From: Phyllosticta citribraziliensis
Taxonomy: Eukaryota
Direction of reading: 5' to 3'
Assembly: GCF_038025025.1 (NCBI RefSeq)
Contig: NW_027117349.1
Location: 930,001 to 994,000 of the forward strand
DNA length: 64,000 nt
Below, one piece after another: positions 9,483 through 17,255 of the stretch (positions are counted from its first letter, which is position 1; the number at the start of each line of letters is the position of its first letter). The translations under genes were made by a program, and so were the position numbers. The notes beneath the pieces are model-generated. The model was not told the DNA's origin and ran no database searches. It saw nothing but the letters and a program-made list of their open reading frames with translations.

Positions 9483-10514
9483 TCATAATCCTGGCATGCC
9501 AATGATTGCCCTCAACGCAGGGACACCTCTTGGGAGAAAGTAGACAGCCCAGATGGTCATCCACGCGACCAAAAGCCCGGTAAACTTTTCGAACCAGGTG
9601 TGGAAAAAGGCCGCAGTCATGAGCAGCATCCACCAACTCAGAGTCATGACAGCCAGCGCAGCCTTGACTCCAACTCCCGGATCTCTTTCGCCGACCTGGT
9701 TGGCGTTGTCCGCTCTGGCCTCCGCTGCCGCAGTCCTCACTTTGCCATCATCCATGACCACTCTCCTGCCGTCGCGAAGTCCTTCGGCCCGCGTGACTGG
9801 GGGAAGAATTTCAAACCACAGCAGCATGCTTCCCAAGATGAGCAAAAAGACGTGCCCGCTGATGTCGTGTCCGCCTTTCCAGGCACCACCAGCGAGCTTG
9901 CACGTGGCAGCTGTAACATATTCGCGCGTGTCCGACATGGTCTCTCGCGCTTCGGGATCCCTCACCAATTCGCATTGTCCACCGGTGAATCGGAAAAGCG
10001 TATCAATCAATGGTGGTCCAAAGCACCACTGGGTGACGAGCACCCATGCCAGCGTCACCAGGGCCCAGCGCAACAATCCACGAAAACGGCGGGGAGTCAG
10101 AGTAAGCCGCATCGGCGGGCCAAGCGAAGGATGCGTGAACAAGAACAGGAGAGTGGCAGCCGTTGTCCAAGCCCAGCCCTTTTTGACAAAATAGACGTTG
10201 AAGATGTTTTTCTTGGTTGCAAAATACGACGGGGCGACGTCGACCGGGTGAGACTGGGTGGCAGCACTGTAGGGTGTGTTTCGCGTCGTCGGCGAGATGA
10301 TGGAGAAGATGGAGCCGAGAACGAGTGTCGCGGGGTAAATGGAGAGAAGGAGGAGCTCGAGACGCGTCGGGAGAAAGGGTGAACGCGCAGCGGGTGAGGT
10401 GCGGAGAGGACTGCGGTCGTGTTTCGAATCGTCCATGGTGCCAGGTTGGCTGCTTGAGGAGGAGGTGGTGTCGGCGACGCCTTCGTCGGGAAGAGGGCGA
10501 CGCCTGGTGGACAT
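9483..10514 (-). CDS. SCS3: FIT-family ER acyl-CoA diphosphatase / fat-storage-inducing transmembrane protein
   Basis: Single exon, likely start MSTRRR at 10514. Motifs FATKKNIFNVYFVKKGWAWT, TQWCFGPPLID, GGHDISGHVFLL and MTAAFFHTWFEK; several TM segments. Confidence 0.93.
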   Translation of the reverse strand: MSTRRRPLPDEGVADTTSSSSSQPGTMDDSKHDRSPLRTSPAARSPFLPTRLELLLLSIYPATLVLGSIFSIISPTTRNTPYSAATQSHPVDVAPSYFATKKNIFNVYFVKKGWAWTTAATLLFLFTHPSLGPPMRLTLTPRRFRGLLRWALVTLAWVLVTQWCFGPPLIDTLFRFTGGQCELVRDPEARETMSDTREYVTAATCKLAGGAWKGGHDISGHVFLLILGSMLLWFEILPPVTRAEGLRDGRRVVMDDGKVRTAAAEARADNANQVGERDPGVGVKAALAVMTLSWWMLLMTAAFFHTWFEKFTGLLVAWMTIWAVYFLPRGVPALRAIIGMPGL

Positions 10515-10608
10515 GATATTGCAAGATGGAGGACGTTTCTTGTTTGTGAGTCGAGCGCCGTGATGCAACGCGAAGTTTCCAGTTGGCGATGACGTCGACT
10601 TTAACTAC

Positions 10609-10630
10609 ATCACGTGACTAGGCACGTGAC
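10609..10630. promoter_or_regulatory. Tandem CACGTG E-boxes upstream of SCS3
   Basis: ATCACGTGAC (10609-10618) and GCACGTGAC (10622-10630), about 100 nt upstream of the SCS3 ATG. Confidence 0.45.
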
Positions 10631-12534
10631 CACCTAGCCTCCATCAGATTACTACTCCGTAGGATGTATCACGACGTTTTGGGCCTTCCGGCTTCATATC
10701 TGATGCATCTCCCCAGGCCGCGCCTGTGTTTCGAGTTGGGGCTGTGCATTCATGCCTCCAACTCTCAACTTCAAACCTGCACCTCAAGTCAAAGCGGTTG
10801 CTCGCCTCGTTCCGCCAGCCGAGCCGCTACAATGCCCAACCACAATTCGCCGGGGCACCTGTTCGGCTGTTGATGAGGGCATCTCTGGCCTTTTCTCGCA
10901 CGACTCAGGAGATTGCCGGGCACAAGGCCTCTATGGGCTGAACACGGGCACTAAATCTCCTGAAAATCGGAGCCATGGCCACCAACTCGGGCCCACTCGT
11001 CTCGAACGTCATTTCATTGGGTGGATGGCGGCGGGAGCTTGCGGCTTCATTGTTCGTAAAAGCTTCTGGAAGTAGCCTGGCAGCGTTCTTGAAGCTCGCT
11101 TTGGACGGGCCGAATCTCGTGTCCACCAACGGTTGATGTGGCGATCGACGCGAGAGCCGTTCTGCGCATCTGCCCTACACGCTCGGGCATGGAGCGTTTG
11201 GCTGAATGGGGCATAGTAACATGTTCTTCAAATGAGACGAGCTGCTCAGTGCGTGAACAACTGACTGCACCGGCCGTATGGAAAGGCTCAGGCCAGCTTC
11301 TGGAAGGGTGATGGAAACTAGAAACACGCACGGTGTTGACAAGAGGGTTGCAGTAGCCCTGACTCTTCTGATGCCGCCCAAAGCACGCCGACTGTTCAGT
11401 GTCAGCGTCGGACAAGGTTGCGGCAGCAAACCCTATCTTTGCCAATGAGTCGATACGACGCAGTGATGTCAAACATGTAAAGGATTCGAGAAATTGGCAA
11501 ACCGGATTCGCAGAGTGGCATTGCGTTGGAGCAAGGGAAAGAAGTCTGCCCAAACGAGGTGGTACCTTCGTGGCCGCTGTATATCCGAGTTCAGGGGGGC
11601 GGTCAATCATTTGGGAAGGCTCTACGTCAAGACTCTCTTGATAGTCGACCGACTGCGTTTGGCGGTGGAGGCTTGTGTAGCTGTGCAGGGCGGCCGTTTA
11701 CAACCAAGGTCATTTGGCCAGCCGGAAGCAGTCGAGGCATCTGCGAGGTGTTCCACGATTGGAAACGGCATGTAGATTGACGAACAGCGGCTACTGTACG
11801 AAATTCCCGGTTCAAAAGTCCATCTTTTTCTGGAGCCTAGCCTGGCCCTGTGCAACGGCCGTCCCGCGAAGGCGGCATCTGGATCCGTGTTCCCCGACGA
11901 GGCCAGGTAGCACAACAGCTTGGTTCCCTGCCGGTCCTGGGACTCGTTCAGTCTGGCAATGCGAGATGCAATCAGTGGTGCGTGGGCGTTTGGCAGAAAA
12001 TTCTAGACGGCATCCCGCGAGAAAACAGCCGTGCATCGCAGATTGCTCCACTGGGCCACCCGTAATTTGTGATGATCGTGGGGGCTTGCTGGGGGATCAA
12101 ACGGGCTGATGGAGACAAACGGCCGCTCTGTAGGATCGGCGCGACAGTCAGGGGAGACCCAGGGAGGCAGGTGAAGAAGGCAAGCTGGGACTCGAGTGAA
12201 ACGTCAGCGCAATCGTTTCTCCAGCTGCGACGCAAGGTCGAAGAGAGGTAGTTGTCGGTAGAGGCTGAAAATGGACCTGGGCTGGCTGTAACGTTGGCGG
12301 TGCATATGCACGACGCCTCCTTTTCACACTCCACTTCCCACGTGTGGTCCGGGATGACGTCTGCTGCGAAGTTGATCGCTTTTTGCTCATCCCTGTGTTC
12401 GCTTCCGCGCGCTTGGAAGGACGATGCAGAGCTAACGAAGCCTCCGAACCGTTCGCAGCGCTTCCGCCCATCCCCGCAGCGCAGCAGGGCTGAAGGGGAA
12501 AGGCTGATTGACAAGGGGAGAGCAGGAAGAGAGG

Positions 12535-12554
12535 AAAAAAAAAAAAAAAAAAAA
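12535..12554. repeat. Poly(A)20 tract
   Basis: 20 consecutive A in intergenic DNA. Confidence 0.9.
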
Positions 12555-14152
12555 GAACCAACGACCCCAAGACGCGCAAGGAACCCGGTCCCAAAACAAG
12601 CTCTCCTGGCCGCCCAACTCTGCCCGTCGGCGTCGCTCGCTGCCCGTTGATTGCCCGTCGCGGAGTCTGATCCGTTCAAAAAAGTTATTGCTTCACAAAC
12701 ATGCCCAACACCACCCCGTTAGACAGGCTGAGCCTGAAAGTGGCAGCGTCTCGAATGATGGAGCGCCAATTGCTGCGTCATGTTTCAGTAGTGTGCCGTG
12801 GGTCATGTTCAACCGCTCTGATTGCCGTCCGAAAATGAGACCGATTCCTGGGGTAGATTCGCAAATGGCGCAGTCGTCAGTCAATGCGTGGTGGTTTGCA
12901 TGTCTTTTGTTTTTGTTCCTGTCCTGCCTTGCAGAGAGCCTTGTCGGAAGGATAGGCGCAGCTTGCTCCGCGGAAGGCTTGCATGCGCATCCGCAGTGGG
13001 TGCGATCAAAAAAAGAGACTGAGATCTGAGGACAAGAATGTGACACGACAAGGAAAAACCGGGTTGGGGATTGCTTTTTTGCTGAAAGGGCAGGGCAATG
13101 GTTGACGCGCGTTGGTTTGCACGGCGGCAGACAGGGCACCAACAGACATGGACGTGACTCGCAAGTCGAGCTGCCAGCAACCTTAATGCGGCCTCGGCTC
13201 GGACTCCTGATCCGCGCCTTTAGCCGTCCGCTGTGGTGTGCTCTGACTTCAGGCACGGGGCGCGTTGATGAAGAGTCCAACGGTGGTGAGTAAGGTAGAT
13301 ACCTGAGGTGGGCTGCTAGCCACCACGGCAGCCAGTGGGCAGGCCAAGCCGCCGTCCAGTGCTCGTCTCGTCGTCGCCGCCCAAGTCAATATCAAGACAT
13401 GTCGACCTCAGCCAAGTGGCTTGCCGCTGGGTGCCAAACAGGATGCGACATAGACATGTTCCGTTCGCTGCCATAGCATCAATGCGCCGGCGCGGCGAGA
13501 GCGTTGTTCATGCCAGGTACGATACGGCAAGCCAGGGGCATCCCTCCCGCTGGGACTTTTGGAACATCTGTGCCGTCGATCCCCTTGCCAGAAATTATGG
13601 CTTCTGCGCAGCAGGGTCTCCTTTGAAACAGCCCGAAGAGCCGTCGGCCGGCACGTCATGTCATGTCGCTGCGAAATGCGTCCAAATTTCATTTGTCTCT
13701 CGCTTCCCGCCAAGTGCTTTTGGCCCAGGACCAGGAAAGGGGGCCTTCTCTATAACTACCCGCGCTGCCCTTTCTCCACCCGTTCTTGGATTCTACTACC
13801 TATCCAAACCCACCTCACCTCGCCTCGCCTCGCCGTGTCTACTCTACGACACTCCCGTCCGTCCGTCCGTCCTCTTCGCCCGGCCAAGTGCCCCCTTTGC
13901 TGCCTCTCGCCCTTGGCGCCCACCTCTTACACCCACTACGCTCTTGCTTTGCGCCGCGGCACCACCACCCCGTCGTTTTGATACTCCCGCACCAGCCCGG
14001 CTCTCCCTCCAATCCCGTCACTTGGACACCCTCGCACCACCCTACCCCCGGCTATATTTCCCACTCCTGCTTCGTAAGTCTCAGCTCCGGCTGACGGCCC
14101 TCTCTCGACCGGCTGGGCGCTGACCTTTTTAAAGCTCGCCTTCTCCGCCATC

Positions 14153-14254
14153 ATGATTACTCGGGAATCCTCCGCCATTGCGACCAACATGGGCCGTGGT
14201 GCCTACGACACGACGGGCGCGCCCAAGCCTCCTCCGCCAAAGAAGAGGAGATGA
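14153..14254 (+). CDS. Candidate micropeptide MITRESSAIATN-MGRGAYDTTGAPKPPPPKKRR (33 aa; 21 aa from the second ATG at 14189)
   Basis: TATAA at 13751, pyrimidine-rich leader, canonical intron 14074-14134 upstream and 14400-14461 downstream. Both ATGs have A at -3 (ATCATG, AACATG). Confidence 0.55.
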   Translation: MITRESSAIATNMGRGAYDTTGAPKPPPPKKRR

Positions 14255-15782
14255 AGACCGACTCCCCACCAATCGTCTCCCAGCAATTGCTCTCCAGCGC
14301 CTCCTCACACTCCGCGGGCGTGGGTGATTTTTTTCCGTCGTCGCCGCTGCGAGCTGCCCGTTGCTGGCCGGAAGCCCGAGGGACGGCTGCTTGTGAATCG
14401 TAAGACTCGGTTCGCCTGTCAAGCGACGACACCTTGCATGCTGACGACTATCCCTGCGCAGGCGAGCCGCCTCCCTCGCTCCCGTCTACCCTTTTTCCTC
14501 CTCGTCTCCAGCGGGCGCCTCACTTTGACGGCACCGCCGCGCTTCCTACGATCTTTGTAATACCACCACTTGCGAATACCTTCCGACATGTTTAATACCC
14601 CACATCGAGCGATTGTTATGCTGGCGCTTGCTGCATCGGCCTCGACACGAGACGTCCGGCCCTGTATTACTATTTTGGAGGCGGCCCTCCTTGCTTTTTT
14701 CTCATGCCAAAAGTGTTTCATCTGGCGTTATATTAGATGATTGGGGGTTTTTGCTCACGCAAAGGGATACCAAAATTCGAAGTTGGTTCTGCTGTTCCAG
14801 TCTGCACGCACGCATTTTGCTACTTGGAGCCCGATTTTTGGACCCAACAAGGCATAGACCTGAACCACCGGGGGACTGGCGCACGGCGCAAGAATGATGG
14901 ATGGAATGGCGCTGAACAACGGCCAAGGCATTTGGAGCAGGCGTGGCTTGCTTGCTTGCTTGCTCGACTTGCTACATAGCCACTCTGGAAGAAAGTGTAT
15001 TACTAGACTACTCTACTTTTGGCGCACACCAGGAGGCGGTGAGATAGAAACATGGAATAATCACGATTTGCATTCTCGGCAGCAAACAAGGGCTCCTTGG
15101 AGAGAGGTGATTGATCCTCGTACTGGCGACTGGACCCCGGACCGTGGGCCCTGCATGGTGAGGTGGTTACACACAGGGCTGCATCGGATGGGTGCTCCCG
15201 CAGGTCGTTGTCGGCGCTCCGCTCCCGCGACTGCGGCGTCATCCGAGTCGGGACAAGCGACGGTGCTGAGGGCGAGAGAGTCGTCCAAGGCACCTGGATG
15301 GCGACCCGTTTCCCGGTCAGCAAAAGGAAGCAATCGAGCAAAAGGAAAAAGTCGCGCATCCGTCTCGTCTGGGGAGTGCCGCGCCGCGCTGAGCCCTTGC
15401 TTGTGCGACAAGTCGGAGTGCTGTCTCGACCTGCCTCTAGTGTCTGTTGAGGCGTCGGCTTGGCGCTCCCGCTGCGCTGAGGTTAGGTACCTTACGGTAG
15501 CGCCCGGCCCCGCTGCTTCCTTAGCTGCCCAGGGCTGTACCTTAGCTTGACGGCGTCACCGCCCGCGCTGACCTCACCACGGCGTTGCTCCCATCTCTCC
15601 TGCCTACCACCCACGCCATCCTGTCGACAAACGGCCAACATCTCGCCCTGCCTCCCTCTCGTACGCCGCCCGACACCGCCAAATCGCGCCCCTCTCGTCT
15701 GTCTCATCTCACCTGCCACGAAGAAAACCGCCTTCGGCAACCGTCGTATCCCCCCCCAAGCTCCCTGCACCCTCGACCCACC

Positions 15783-17255
15783 ATGTCGCAGCTCAACTGG
15801 CGGACCATCAACATCGATGCTCTGGACCCGGACTCGCCGGCCAACTTCGACATGGCCACCATGGCCCCGACCGTCGTCCCCGTCTCCACCCCGGACGTCC
15901 AGACTCTGGCCGGCCAGGTTCGCCAGCTGCTCAGGGGCGGCGACAGCGAGGGCGCGCTGAGGGGAGCCCTGGAGAATGCGCCCTACGGGGCTGATCAGCA
16001 AGGGAAGGTGAGTGATGGCAGGCTCCTTTTGGGCTATTGAATATTCAATTCGAGATATGGAGAGGGGTCAAAAAATGACACGCCCGCCCTGTCTGGGGAA
16101 GAGCAAGAATGCCATGGCGCGCTGGACGCGATGAAAAAAGGGTGGAAAGATGCCAGACTTGATCGCGACAGACAGGAATCTGGCTGCACTGTCTGCGCCA
16201 TGTTCGCCGTCTTTGGTTGTCGCTGTTGCCTGGTTGGAAGCATCCGTGATAGAAGCGGCGCTAACATTGCACCCGCTCACAGGACATTCACTCCGCCACC
16301 GTCATCGAGGTCCTCCAATCCATCCGCCAGTCGGAAATGTCACCTATTTTGAGCAGAATATACCAATCCGAGGGCGGCTCGGAAGTGTTGGACACCTTGA
16401 TGAAGTACCTGTACGTCTGCCGCGTTTCAGCACCGAACACTCAGCATCACGCGTCAAACTCTATATTCTCCTGCATACCTCGATTGCCACTTTAGACATT
16501 CATTGACTAATTCCCCCCTAGTTACAAGGGCATGGCCTCGGTGCAGCCCTCGGGCTCCAAGCAAAATCTCACCCCTCAGCCCACTGGCTTCTCACAAGTG
16601 TCTGGGCGCAACTTTGGAGCTGGCGATGGCGGTCAGTCGATGAGCGTGTTGCTGAGCTGGCACGAAAAGGTACGTGCCTTGATTCTCATTTTCCCATTTC
16701 AGCATCCGCCTTCCCAATCCATCACCAAGGCATCCCATCCACAGCGCCATCGTGCCGGTTCCGGCATGGTTTTGCCCGCCCCTTGGCCGAGCCGCTACAC
16801 AGACGACCCAATGAAGATGATGACTCTCGTAAACGGCAAGTTGGCGGTGCTTGGTGCATCTGGCGGGGTTTGGCGCTGGCTGGCGCCGTGTGCAAGGTCA
16901 GAGTGGGGTACTTTGTGCTTGGGTCGTGGCTTTCTTCATGCCACTTTCAACCGGCTTGCTTGCCGTGCGCTTTCGACCCGACAGAACGGTGATACAGCGA
17001 CGGCTGAACGGGTGGGCGGGCCCTCGTCTGCCCCGGCCGCAGCGTTCCAGCCTCCGCCTGGGTGGATGAACCGTTCCACCCACTGACTCAGGCGCCTTTT
17101 CGTCTCACGTCCACTGCAACCTCTTTGTCTCAACGCTTTGCACTCTTGTTCAAACCTCGCAACAACAGACTAACGCATGCTGTGCGCTATAGACTGTCGA
17201 GATTGCGGGCCTTGGAAGCATCGCTCGCGTCATGGCTGACAGGCGCACCGTCTAA
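15783..17255 (+). CDS. ARC15: Arp2/3 complex subunit 5 (ARPC5/p16)
   Basis: Exons 15783-16007, 16283-16410, 16522-16669, 17193-17255. Reads NWRTINIDALDP..GALRGALENAPYG..DTLMKYLYKGM..LLSWHEK|TVEIAGLGSIARVMADRRTV. Confidence 0.95.

Follow-up and report, generated by a model that had tools for sequence, protein, structure and literature searches.

The stretch of DNA analyzed here, hereafter the window, comprises 64,000 nucleotides of Phyllosticta citribraziliensis (NCBI RefSeq assembly GCF_038025025.1, contig NW_027117349.1, positions 930,001 to 994,000 of the forward strand), and all coordinates below are counted from its first letter. Between a FIT-family gene and the gene for ARPC5 lies a small transcription unit with three exons and two introns (Table 1), whose sole credible product is the 33-amino-acid micropeptide MITRESSAIATNMGRGAYDTTGAPKPPPPKKRR. 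This micro-gene gives rise to a processed mRNA, and its open reading frame (ORF) is under peptide-level selection across several fungal classes. An earlier reading of the window, made from the letters alone (the sequence-only reading), had proposed a spliced unit of this kind, and the features it listed (a TATAA, the GTAAGT, GCTGAC and AAG of a first intron, two ATGs and a second intron) all lie at the coordinates it gave.

Table 1. Features of the micro-gene and its surroundings in the window (X1, X2 and X16 are sequencing runs introduced in the text; L numbers denote metagenome loci)
Feature	Position	Strand	Basis and remarks
Coding sequence of the 33-aa micropeptide, stop included	14153-14254	+	Translation, family alignment
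Near-invariant core N-M-GRGAYDTTG-x-P-K	14186-14227	+	Family tallies
Exon 1, 5′ leader, C+T-rich	13648-14073	+	Contig starts: 13648 (X1), 13869 (X2)
Intron 1, 5′ untranslated region, 61 nt, GTAAGT...GCTGAC...AAG	14074-14134	+	Joint 14073/14135 in X1 and X2; GCTGAC at 14119-14124; closed by AAAG at 14134
Exon 2, whole coding sequence and 145 nt of 3′ untranslated region	14135-14399	+	Contig pieces
Intron 2, 3′ untranslated region, 62 nt, GTAAGA...GCTGAC...CAG	14400-14461	+	Joint 14399/14462 in X1, X2 and X16
Exon 3, 3′ untranslated region	14462-15023	+	X1 and X2 contigs both end at 15023
TATAA box candidate	13751-13755	+	Read from sequence; TATA at a similar distance in L072 (-433) and L042 (-395)
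Conserved upstream (promoter-region) block, TTGAAACA...GGCACGTCATG	13620-13663	+	blastn; ~100 nt 5′ of TATAA
FIT-family gene	9486-10604	-	Pfam FIT, E = 3.8e-84
ARPC5 exon 1	15783-16007	+	Pfam P16-Arc
ARPC5 introns	16008-16282, 16411-16521	+	Contig joints

The structure of the transcript was established by comparing positions 13400-16900 with contigs of four public runs. Two of these (X1 and X2) were produced by two studies of the same organism, a third (X16) comes from a relative that is ~90% alike and has RNA-seq on record, and the fourth (X19) also comes from a relative. The label of the X1 and X2 runs is only a guess, and both are taken as RNA because of their intron joints. Each yields a single contig that joins the three exons and skips 14074-14134 and 14400-14461, and the second of these introns is skipped in X16 as well, so the spliced unit proposed from the letters is borne out by RNA junctions. 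As a control, the two introns of ARPC5 are likewise skipped in X1 and X2. X19 retains all four introns, two of the micro-gene and two of ARPC5, and therefore behaves as DNA. The mature mRNA measures ~1.1-1.25 kb. Both introns fall in untranslated regions (UTRs), with the start codon 18 nt past the end of intron 1 and with intron 2 beginning 145 nt 3′ of the stop codon.

The ATG at 14153 is the first AUG after the leader, a second in-frame ATG follows at 14189, and the frame closes with TGA at 14252-14254. The product is a basic, hydrophilic peptide of 3.6 kDa (grand average of hydropathy, GRAVY, ~-1) without a signal sequence or hydrophobic stretch. The window contains a single copy of its back-translated core motif, ATGGGNCGNGGNGSNTAYGAYACNACNGG, where 0 would be expected. 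A degenerate DNA scan of metagenomes with this motif gave at least 112 loci, and the family counts reported here rest on the loci listed. The frame is closed within the locus in 109 of the 112. In 104 of these 109 the stop lies 19-24 codons after the Met of MGRG, and in 101 an in-frame ATG is found 8-16 codons upstream with no intervening stop. The eight loci that lack the upstream ATG are L024, L041, L050, L054 and L097, which have longer or different tails, together with L003 and L068 (both with a different tail) and L109 (cut at the locus end).

Alignment of 65 distinct full peptides of 29-36 aa, that of the window included, gives the consensus M-I-x-R-(E/D)-x4-6-N-(M/F)-GRGAYDTTG-(V/T)-PKP followed by a proline-rich tail. 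In the N-terminal extension, the initial M is followed by I at position 2 (56/65), R at position 4 (56/65) and E or D at position 5 (51/65). An Asn just before the core is found in 58 of the 65 peptides, and N occupies position -1 in 99 of 110 closed ORFs (the 109 loci plus the window). After the core comes V or T and then P (56/65), K (63/65) and P (64/65), and the last residue of the tail is K or R in 60 peptides. Tails often end in PKPR, PPPK or PQPQ, the last of these in Trichoderma. The search pattern had forced the ten core residues MGRG(A/G)YDTTG and nothing else, so the N-terminal extension, the Asn, the P-K-P and the position of the stop constitute independent evidence.

The same conclusion is reached at the level of codons. 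Among 85 unique DNA versions of the ORF, the P, K and P after the core are encoded in 72, 81 and 82, respectively, with varied codons. In the unforced columns (N at -1; P, K and P at +11 to +13) the entropy of codon positions 1 and 2 is 0.2-0.7 bits, and position 3 in the two Pro columns reaches 1.8-1.9 bits. Judged from the aligned DNA, such third-position variation is the signature of selection on the peptide. Moreover, ATG triplets are depleted in the 200 nt 5′ of the start (82 observed versus 155 expected in 69 loci) but not 3′ of the stop (191 observed versus 160 expected).

No other ORF of the transcript behaves in this way. Searches with tblastn give 114 matches to the peptide in the 112 loci, compared with 0 relatives (E<=0.01) for each of the ORFs of 71, 50, 80 and 44 aa and for a read-through of the TGA, all of which were rejected as coding; the micropeptide is thus the sole credible product, as the sequence-only reading had held. 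The 71-aa ORF extends across intron 2 from an ATG that overlaps the micropeptide stop (ATGA, 14251-14254). In a relative this ORF contains a +4 insertion, and it is probably not coding. In distant loci, the micropeptide ORF is the only part of the transcript that blastn finds conserved.

Whether translation begins at the first or at the second ATG can also be addressed by comparison. In HMMER matches, for which the second Met was unforced, this residue is replaced by Phe in Sordaria (MITRESQSVNFGRGAYDTTG...), Neurospora and Trichoderma, and by Gln or His elsewhere. With Phe at this position, translation in those three genera must begin at the upstream Met. Together with the conserved N-terminal extension, these substitutions indicate that the product is the 33-aa form and not the 21-aa form. 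The basic, proline-rich peptide of 21-33 aa suggested earlier thus stands in its central point and is narrowed to its longer version.

The family is broad. A phmmer search against 1.84 billion representatives gave 74 matches at E<=1e-3 and none at E<=1e-10, since a 33-aa query cannot score higher, and a profile built from 15 sequences gave 183 proteins at E<=0.01. Named members come from four classes of Pezizomycotina, namely Sordariomycetes (Neurospora crassa NCU03451, Sordaria, Colletotrichum, Fusarium, Trichoderma, Verticillium, Pyricularia), Dothideomycetes (Alternaria, Zymoseptoria, Venturia, Aureobasidium), Eurotiomycetes (Penicillium, Aspergillus ellipticus, Trichophyton) and Leotiomycetes (Sclerotinia, Diplocarpon, Phlyctema), and Lecanoromycetes probably carry the family as well. 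Alignments A1 and A2 show no variation in the core GRGAYDTTG. NCU03451, SMACR_12796 of Sordaria macrospora, CTA1_1554 of Colletotrichum tanaceti and Vi05172_g7821 of Venturia inaequalis have the same N-terminus, core and tail and are true orthologues or family members. Every named member is labelled 'hypothetical' or 'uncharacterized', and the hypothetical proteins with MGRG(A/G)YDTTG mentioned in the sequence-only reading do exist. The further guess of that reading, that the gene is probably unannotated, holds for the most part, but scattered and inconsistent gene models do exist. These range from 31 to 135 aa or longer, and many overrun the peptide at one end; the NCU03451 model of 84 aa runs on past the end of the Sordaria peptide, and other models exceed 100 aa. 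By sequence comparison, then, the 33-aa product is conserved across filamentous ascomycetes and is mostly unannotated or mis-modelled. Among the automatic labels is one in the P0022 cluster, in which seven of eight members carry a source name, five of them 'dihydrofolate reductase' and two 'hypothetical protein'; the former looks spurious because the proteins are only 45-47 aa long.

Several variant forms were encountered. In Xylariales, single ORFs encode two tandem copies of the core plus proline-rich tail (P0010, P0014, P0015, P0016 and P0051). The named two-copy members are all from this order (Xylaria arbuscula, Anthostomella pinea and Rostrohypoxylon terebratum), and in their copies GRG is preceded by F, S, T, W or Y, with acidic spacers between the two units. 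A second gene, located outside the window, is present in the same organism and in the X16 and X19 relatives. A stretch coding for MGRGAYDTTGAPK(PP) is common to both genes (loose ends at 14189 and 14227; window 14189-14233). By hand translation, the tail of this paralog reads TPGKTTNKVE or GKTTNKVDL followed by a stop, and FDL(P/A)LN lies upstream in frame. Because the two-copy forms and the paralog with its different tail all keep the core, the core would appear to be the functional unit. Protein P0009 is a 96-aa metagenome protein, a single model at E = 0.16, that by eye has a signal-peptide-like N-terminus followed by HGRGAYDTTGAPKPPPPPPK, and it is the sole member to hint at secretion. Finally, loci L024 and L041 each hold two divergent GRGAYDTTG-coding copies, separated by ~300 nt, whose tails are atypical and which lack the MIxRE extension upstream, and these copies may represent a different, rearranged or decaying member.

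Searches of reference collections returned little. Pfam gave 0 families for nine members at E<=10, a sequence search of the PDB found no related chain (only a chance match, E = 1.6), and the ESM Atlas gave no usable match. The core motif GRGAYDTTG and the names SMAC(R)_12796 and NCU03451 were not found in the main texts of the literature, the supplements of PMC10578600 contain no match, and in those portions of the literature on fungal micropeptides and small ORFs that were accessible nothing relevant was found.

The arrangement of the gene was compared in 47 non-redundant loci with enough flanking sequence, with the reverse complement as a control. A candidate intron 5′ of the start ATG is present in 33 of the 47 (control, 6/47), and most of these end 17-20 nt before the ATG. 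Likewise, 31 of the 47 have a candidate intron within 500 nt after the stop (control, 5/47), most of them beginning ~110-160 nt downstream. The introns of the window itself miss the scan pattern solely through the AAG 3′ end of the first and the GTAAGA 5′ end of the second, and both are confirmed by RNA. In one set of loci the co-oriented gene downstream encodes ARPC5 (Pfam P16-Arc, E = 1.4e-14 for the window and L016), and in another it encodes a Rab5/Vps21-type GTPase. The best named relatives of the latter belong to lichen-forming Lecanoromycetes (80-84% identity), and loci with this neighbour therefore look Lecanoromycete. Both UTR intron positions are kept across the two groups and the neighbour varies, which indicates that the micro-gene travels with its own introns and has no fixed partner ORF.

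In the region upstream, the X1 contig begins 5′ of the TATAA, which is thus no more than a candidate box, and transcription of the micro-gene may start at 13648 or downstream of the TATAA. The leader was described by the sequence-only reading as free of ATG. This is correct for the stretch 13756-14073, but the absence is not significant by itself (0 ATG in 336 nt; 21% of shuffles also have 0, P ~0.21), and the 5′ extension of the X1 contig holds ATGs at 13658, 13663 and 13676. By blastn, L072, L042, L049, L037 and L008 contain matches to the conserved block of the promoter region at a corresponding distance, -500 to -630 relative to the MGRG codon. CACGTCA and/or TTGAAACA occur at like positions in 10 of 11 relatives with enough upstream sequence, the exception being L071. 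The block is common to several loci that have ARPC5 as the downstream neighbour, at the same relative position, and the ACGTCA half-site within it is one that we take to be a candidate basic leucine zipper (bZIP) or cyclic AMP response element (CRE)-like site.

In the 3′ UTR, the first 200 nt of exon 3 (14462-14661) differ at 4 of 200 positions from the X16 relative. The same comparison gives 13 substitutions plus 11 gap letters for 14245-14399 and 6 of 130 differences for an ARPC5 coding exon, which suggests an element in the 3′ UTR that is conserved at the level of the genus. No similarity to the 3′ UTR was found by blastn in distant loci. Further out, the ~3 kb between the FIT gene and the micro-gene (10605-13600) contain no credible long ORF, and a poly-A/poly-T-rich stretch lies near 12500-12560, as read from runs of K and F in the translations. 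In ARPC5, a third joint leaves at 16669, where the loose-end letters match the reading frame near 17193. The ARPC5 contig begins at 15125 in X1 and at 15586 in X2, suggesting that ARPC5 has alternative long and short 5′ leaders.

Considering the transcript and the alignments together, we think it quite probable that the unit is a stand-alone, three-exon protein-coding micro-gene whose peptide would act in trans as a disordered linear-motif ligand. It has its own processed transcript and an ORF of fewer than 100 codons kept by amino acid selection, as a stand-alone small ORF (smORF) should, and it represents an uncharacterised new family within smORF-encoded micropeptides. AlphaFold2, run with the family alignment, returned a mean predicted local distance difference test (pLDDT) score of 68.8 and a predicted template modeling (pTM) score of 0.18, with one helical turn at most, and from this model we infer that the peptide has no predicted fold and is intrinsically disordered. 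That eleven residues in a row are near-invariant in a disordered peptide of 3.6 kDa argues for a linear motif accommodated by a conserved pocket. Function would thus lie in the peptide and not in the RNA, and it seems reasonable to speculate that a conserved cellular protein is the docking site of the core N-M/F-GRGAYDTTG-x-PKP. The tail rich in Pro and Lys, which contains PxxP in 64 of the 65 peptides, PPP in 58 and PPPP in 34, might provide a second, PxxP-type contact in a polyproline-II conformation. By the specificities of Met aminopeptidase and NatC, a Met-Ile N-terminus retains its Met and is acetylated by NatC, and the conserved Met-Ile of the family would be expected likewise to keep its Met and be a NatC-type substrate. 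The two UTR introns most likely aid expression of an ORF that is too short to hold one, through splicing-dependent export or translation, and the 3′-UTR intron may also limit expression via nonsense-mediated decay (NMD) that depends on the exon junction complex. In Neurospora, according to PMC7746235, NMD is set off by introns close to a stop; the reference list of that paper names Zhang and Sachs 2015.

Ligand patterns of the SH3 type are frequent in the family (PxxPx(K/R), class II, in 47 of 65 peptides; (K/R)xxPxxP, class I, in 30), but neither class motif is universal. The sequence-only reading had noted that PPKKRR fits the consensus of a monopartite nuclear localization signal (NLS), an idea that fails on comparison, since K(K/R)x(K/R) occurs in one of the 65 peptides, that of the window itself. 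A 3.6-kDa peptide needs no NLS to enter the nucleus. N-myristoylation was rejected, given the Arg after Gly2, the lack of the consensus Ser or Thr at position 6, and the start of the peptide at the upstream Met. Mode I and II 14-3-3 motifs, a WH2-like 'GRGA' and a likeness to the 'FDSGDY' of ENSA were also considered, and none fits well enough.

Among known systems, the closest resemblance in kind might be to tal/pri (tarsal-less/polished rice), arthropod peptides of 11-32 aa with the motif LDPTGxY that are made from an mRNA long thought to be non-coding. In both cases a short, near-invariant motif has been kept over hundreds of millions of years in one or several copies, and the function of tal/pri lies in the peptide, which is a ligand of, or a switch for, a conserved enzyme. 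However, the fungal core is AYDTTG and not LDPTGxY, no sequence relationship is proposed, and the fungal gene is monocistronic, with a Pro-rich tail and conserved UTR introns. Two classes of fungal peptide precursors were considered and set aside. Fungal precursors of ribosomally synthesized and post-translationally modified peptides (RiPPs) have either a signal peptide and Kex2-flanked repeats or a leader and follower around a hypervariable core. The micropeptide has no hydrophobic N-terminus, its core is invariant and its flanks are variable, and its neighbours are ARPC5, Rab5 and FIT genes, which does not fit a dikaritin or MSDIN precursor. Precursors of a-factor-type lipopeptide pheromones end in a CaaX box, and none of the 65 peptides has a Cys near its C-terminus.

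Several points weigh against a trans-acting ligand encoded by a simple micro-gene. Invariance of the core in the 112 loci is partly circular, given that the pattern forced MGRG(A/G)YDTTG, and independent support for it comes from the HMMER matches only. Neither the locus number nor the peptide appears in the supplements of a Sordaria proteogenomics study (PMC6794485). Given what PMC7746235 describes for Neurospora, an mRNA with an intron 145 nt past its stop codon should be subject to NMD in Neurospora-type fungi, which would be odd for a simple housekeeping gene. The three upstream ATGs of the X1 isoform that starts at 13648 would lower translation of the peptide from that isoform. The linear-motif mechanism itself is pure inference, and the signature of a conserved peptide is expected equally for an arrest peptide that acts in cis.

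This last possibility, which we judge unlikely, deserves the most attention among the alternatives. The fungal arginine attenuator peptide (AAP) is encoded by an upstream ORF (uORF) preceding the conserved main ORF of arg-2/CPA1. The micropeptide resembles AAP and other conserved-peptide uORFs in its length (~24-33 aa), its conservation across fungi, its coding-type substitutions, a plausible interaction of the nascent chain with the exit tunnel and a link to NMD. By analogy, the small ORF might be a cis-acting regulatory element whose nascent peptide stalls the ribosome and serves as a sensor rather than an effector. The core would then sit in the exit tunnel while the PPP/PxP tail is decoded in an eIF5A-dependent manner, and the stall, acting with the exon junction that follows after 145 nt, would determine how stable its own transcript is, through NMD or no-go decay. 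A near-invariant stretch placed 5-7 residues before a polyproline run is an arrest-peptide-like layout, a chain of ~30 aa about matches the exit tunnel in length, and third-position variation fits a stalling peptide as well as a trans-acting one. The conserved position of the 3′-UTR intron (31/47 versus 5/47 in the control) also accords with NMD by introns near a stop, as described for Neurospora in PMC7746235. However, in contrast to AAP, the micropeptide is followed by no main ORF on its mRNA, and lineages differ in whether ARPC5 or Rab5 comes next. Nothing conserved is left to regulate, given that the other ORFs of the transcript have no relatives and that conservation in distant loci is confined to the ORF. 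The distance from core to stop varies (19-24 codons from MGRG), 7 of the 65 tails lack PPP altogether, and the two-copy ORFs and the signal-peptide-like N-terminus of P0009 favour a function of the released peptide.

Those last two forms also bear on whether the peptide might be an exported or processed signal, a reading that we consider very unlikely. Such a peptide would lack a leader, leave the cell by unconventional export or be trimmed after the conserved Asn/Asp, and act extracellularly. The N-terminus of P0009 ahead of HGRGAYDTTGAPKPPPPPPK would suit export, the two core-plus-tail units of Xylariales with their acidic spacers recall multi-copy peptide precursors, and N or D stands two residues before GRG in almost all forms. 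But the canonical peptides are hydrophilic throughout and lack a signal sequence, no dibasic sites surround the core, no CaaX box ends the peptide, P0009 is one weak model, and the neighbours are housekeeping genes rather than tailoring enzymes or transporters. A more specific version, to which we give a slimmer chance still, holds that filamentous ascomycetes share the peptide as a signal exported without a leader, with the GRGAYDTTG core as the ligand of a conserved receptor. These fungi have a conserved cell-to-cell communication signal that is not known to have been identified, and if this version were true the peptide would be a candidate for it. The near-invariance of the core in at least four classes, the two-copy forms, P0009 and the Asn/Asp before the core are hints of this and not evidence.

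Less credible still is the idea, raised in the sequence-only reading, that the transcript runs into ARPC5 and that the small ORF is a uORF controlling ARPC5 translation. The two genes share an orientation and are separated by a short gap, the ARPC5 contig of X1 starts (15125) ~100 nt past the end of the micropeptide contig, and ARPC5 also lies downstream in a set of related loci. Yet contigs of both studies stop at 15023, leaving 15024-15124 uncovered, and the ARPC5 contig of X1 fully explains the depth of 597 in the bin 15038-15154, although a rare read-through RNA might escape contigs. As far as the contigs show, the micropeptide transcript is separate from ARPC5. In the other synteny group, moreover, the downstream gene is the Rab5/Vps21-type GTPase, and the uORF model is not supported. 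Finally, a non-coding RNA with a chance ORF merits almost no credence, for even though the ORF has just 33 codons and the 3′ part of the RNA is very similar in a close relative (the 4/200 of 14462-14661), more than 100 loci retain the frame, its length, both of its ends and the third-position variation, conservation of the RNA at a distance does not extend beyond the ORF, and Rfam gives 0 matches at E<=1 in 13000-15800.

For genome annotation, the gene illustrates how micropeptide genes are systematically missed in fungi, and the support for this 33-aa peptide gene is unusually good. It offers a test case both for whether 3′-UTR introns regulate micro-genes via NMD and for how gene callers handle ORFs of ~30 codons. 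The Neurospora orthologue already has a locus number, NCU03451, which makes knock-out, tagging and pull-down routine. Constraint of this strength on a disordered 3.6-kDa peptide implies a conserved partner in core cell biology within the largest filamentous fungal group, which includes many plant and human pathogens as well as industrial species.

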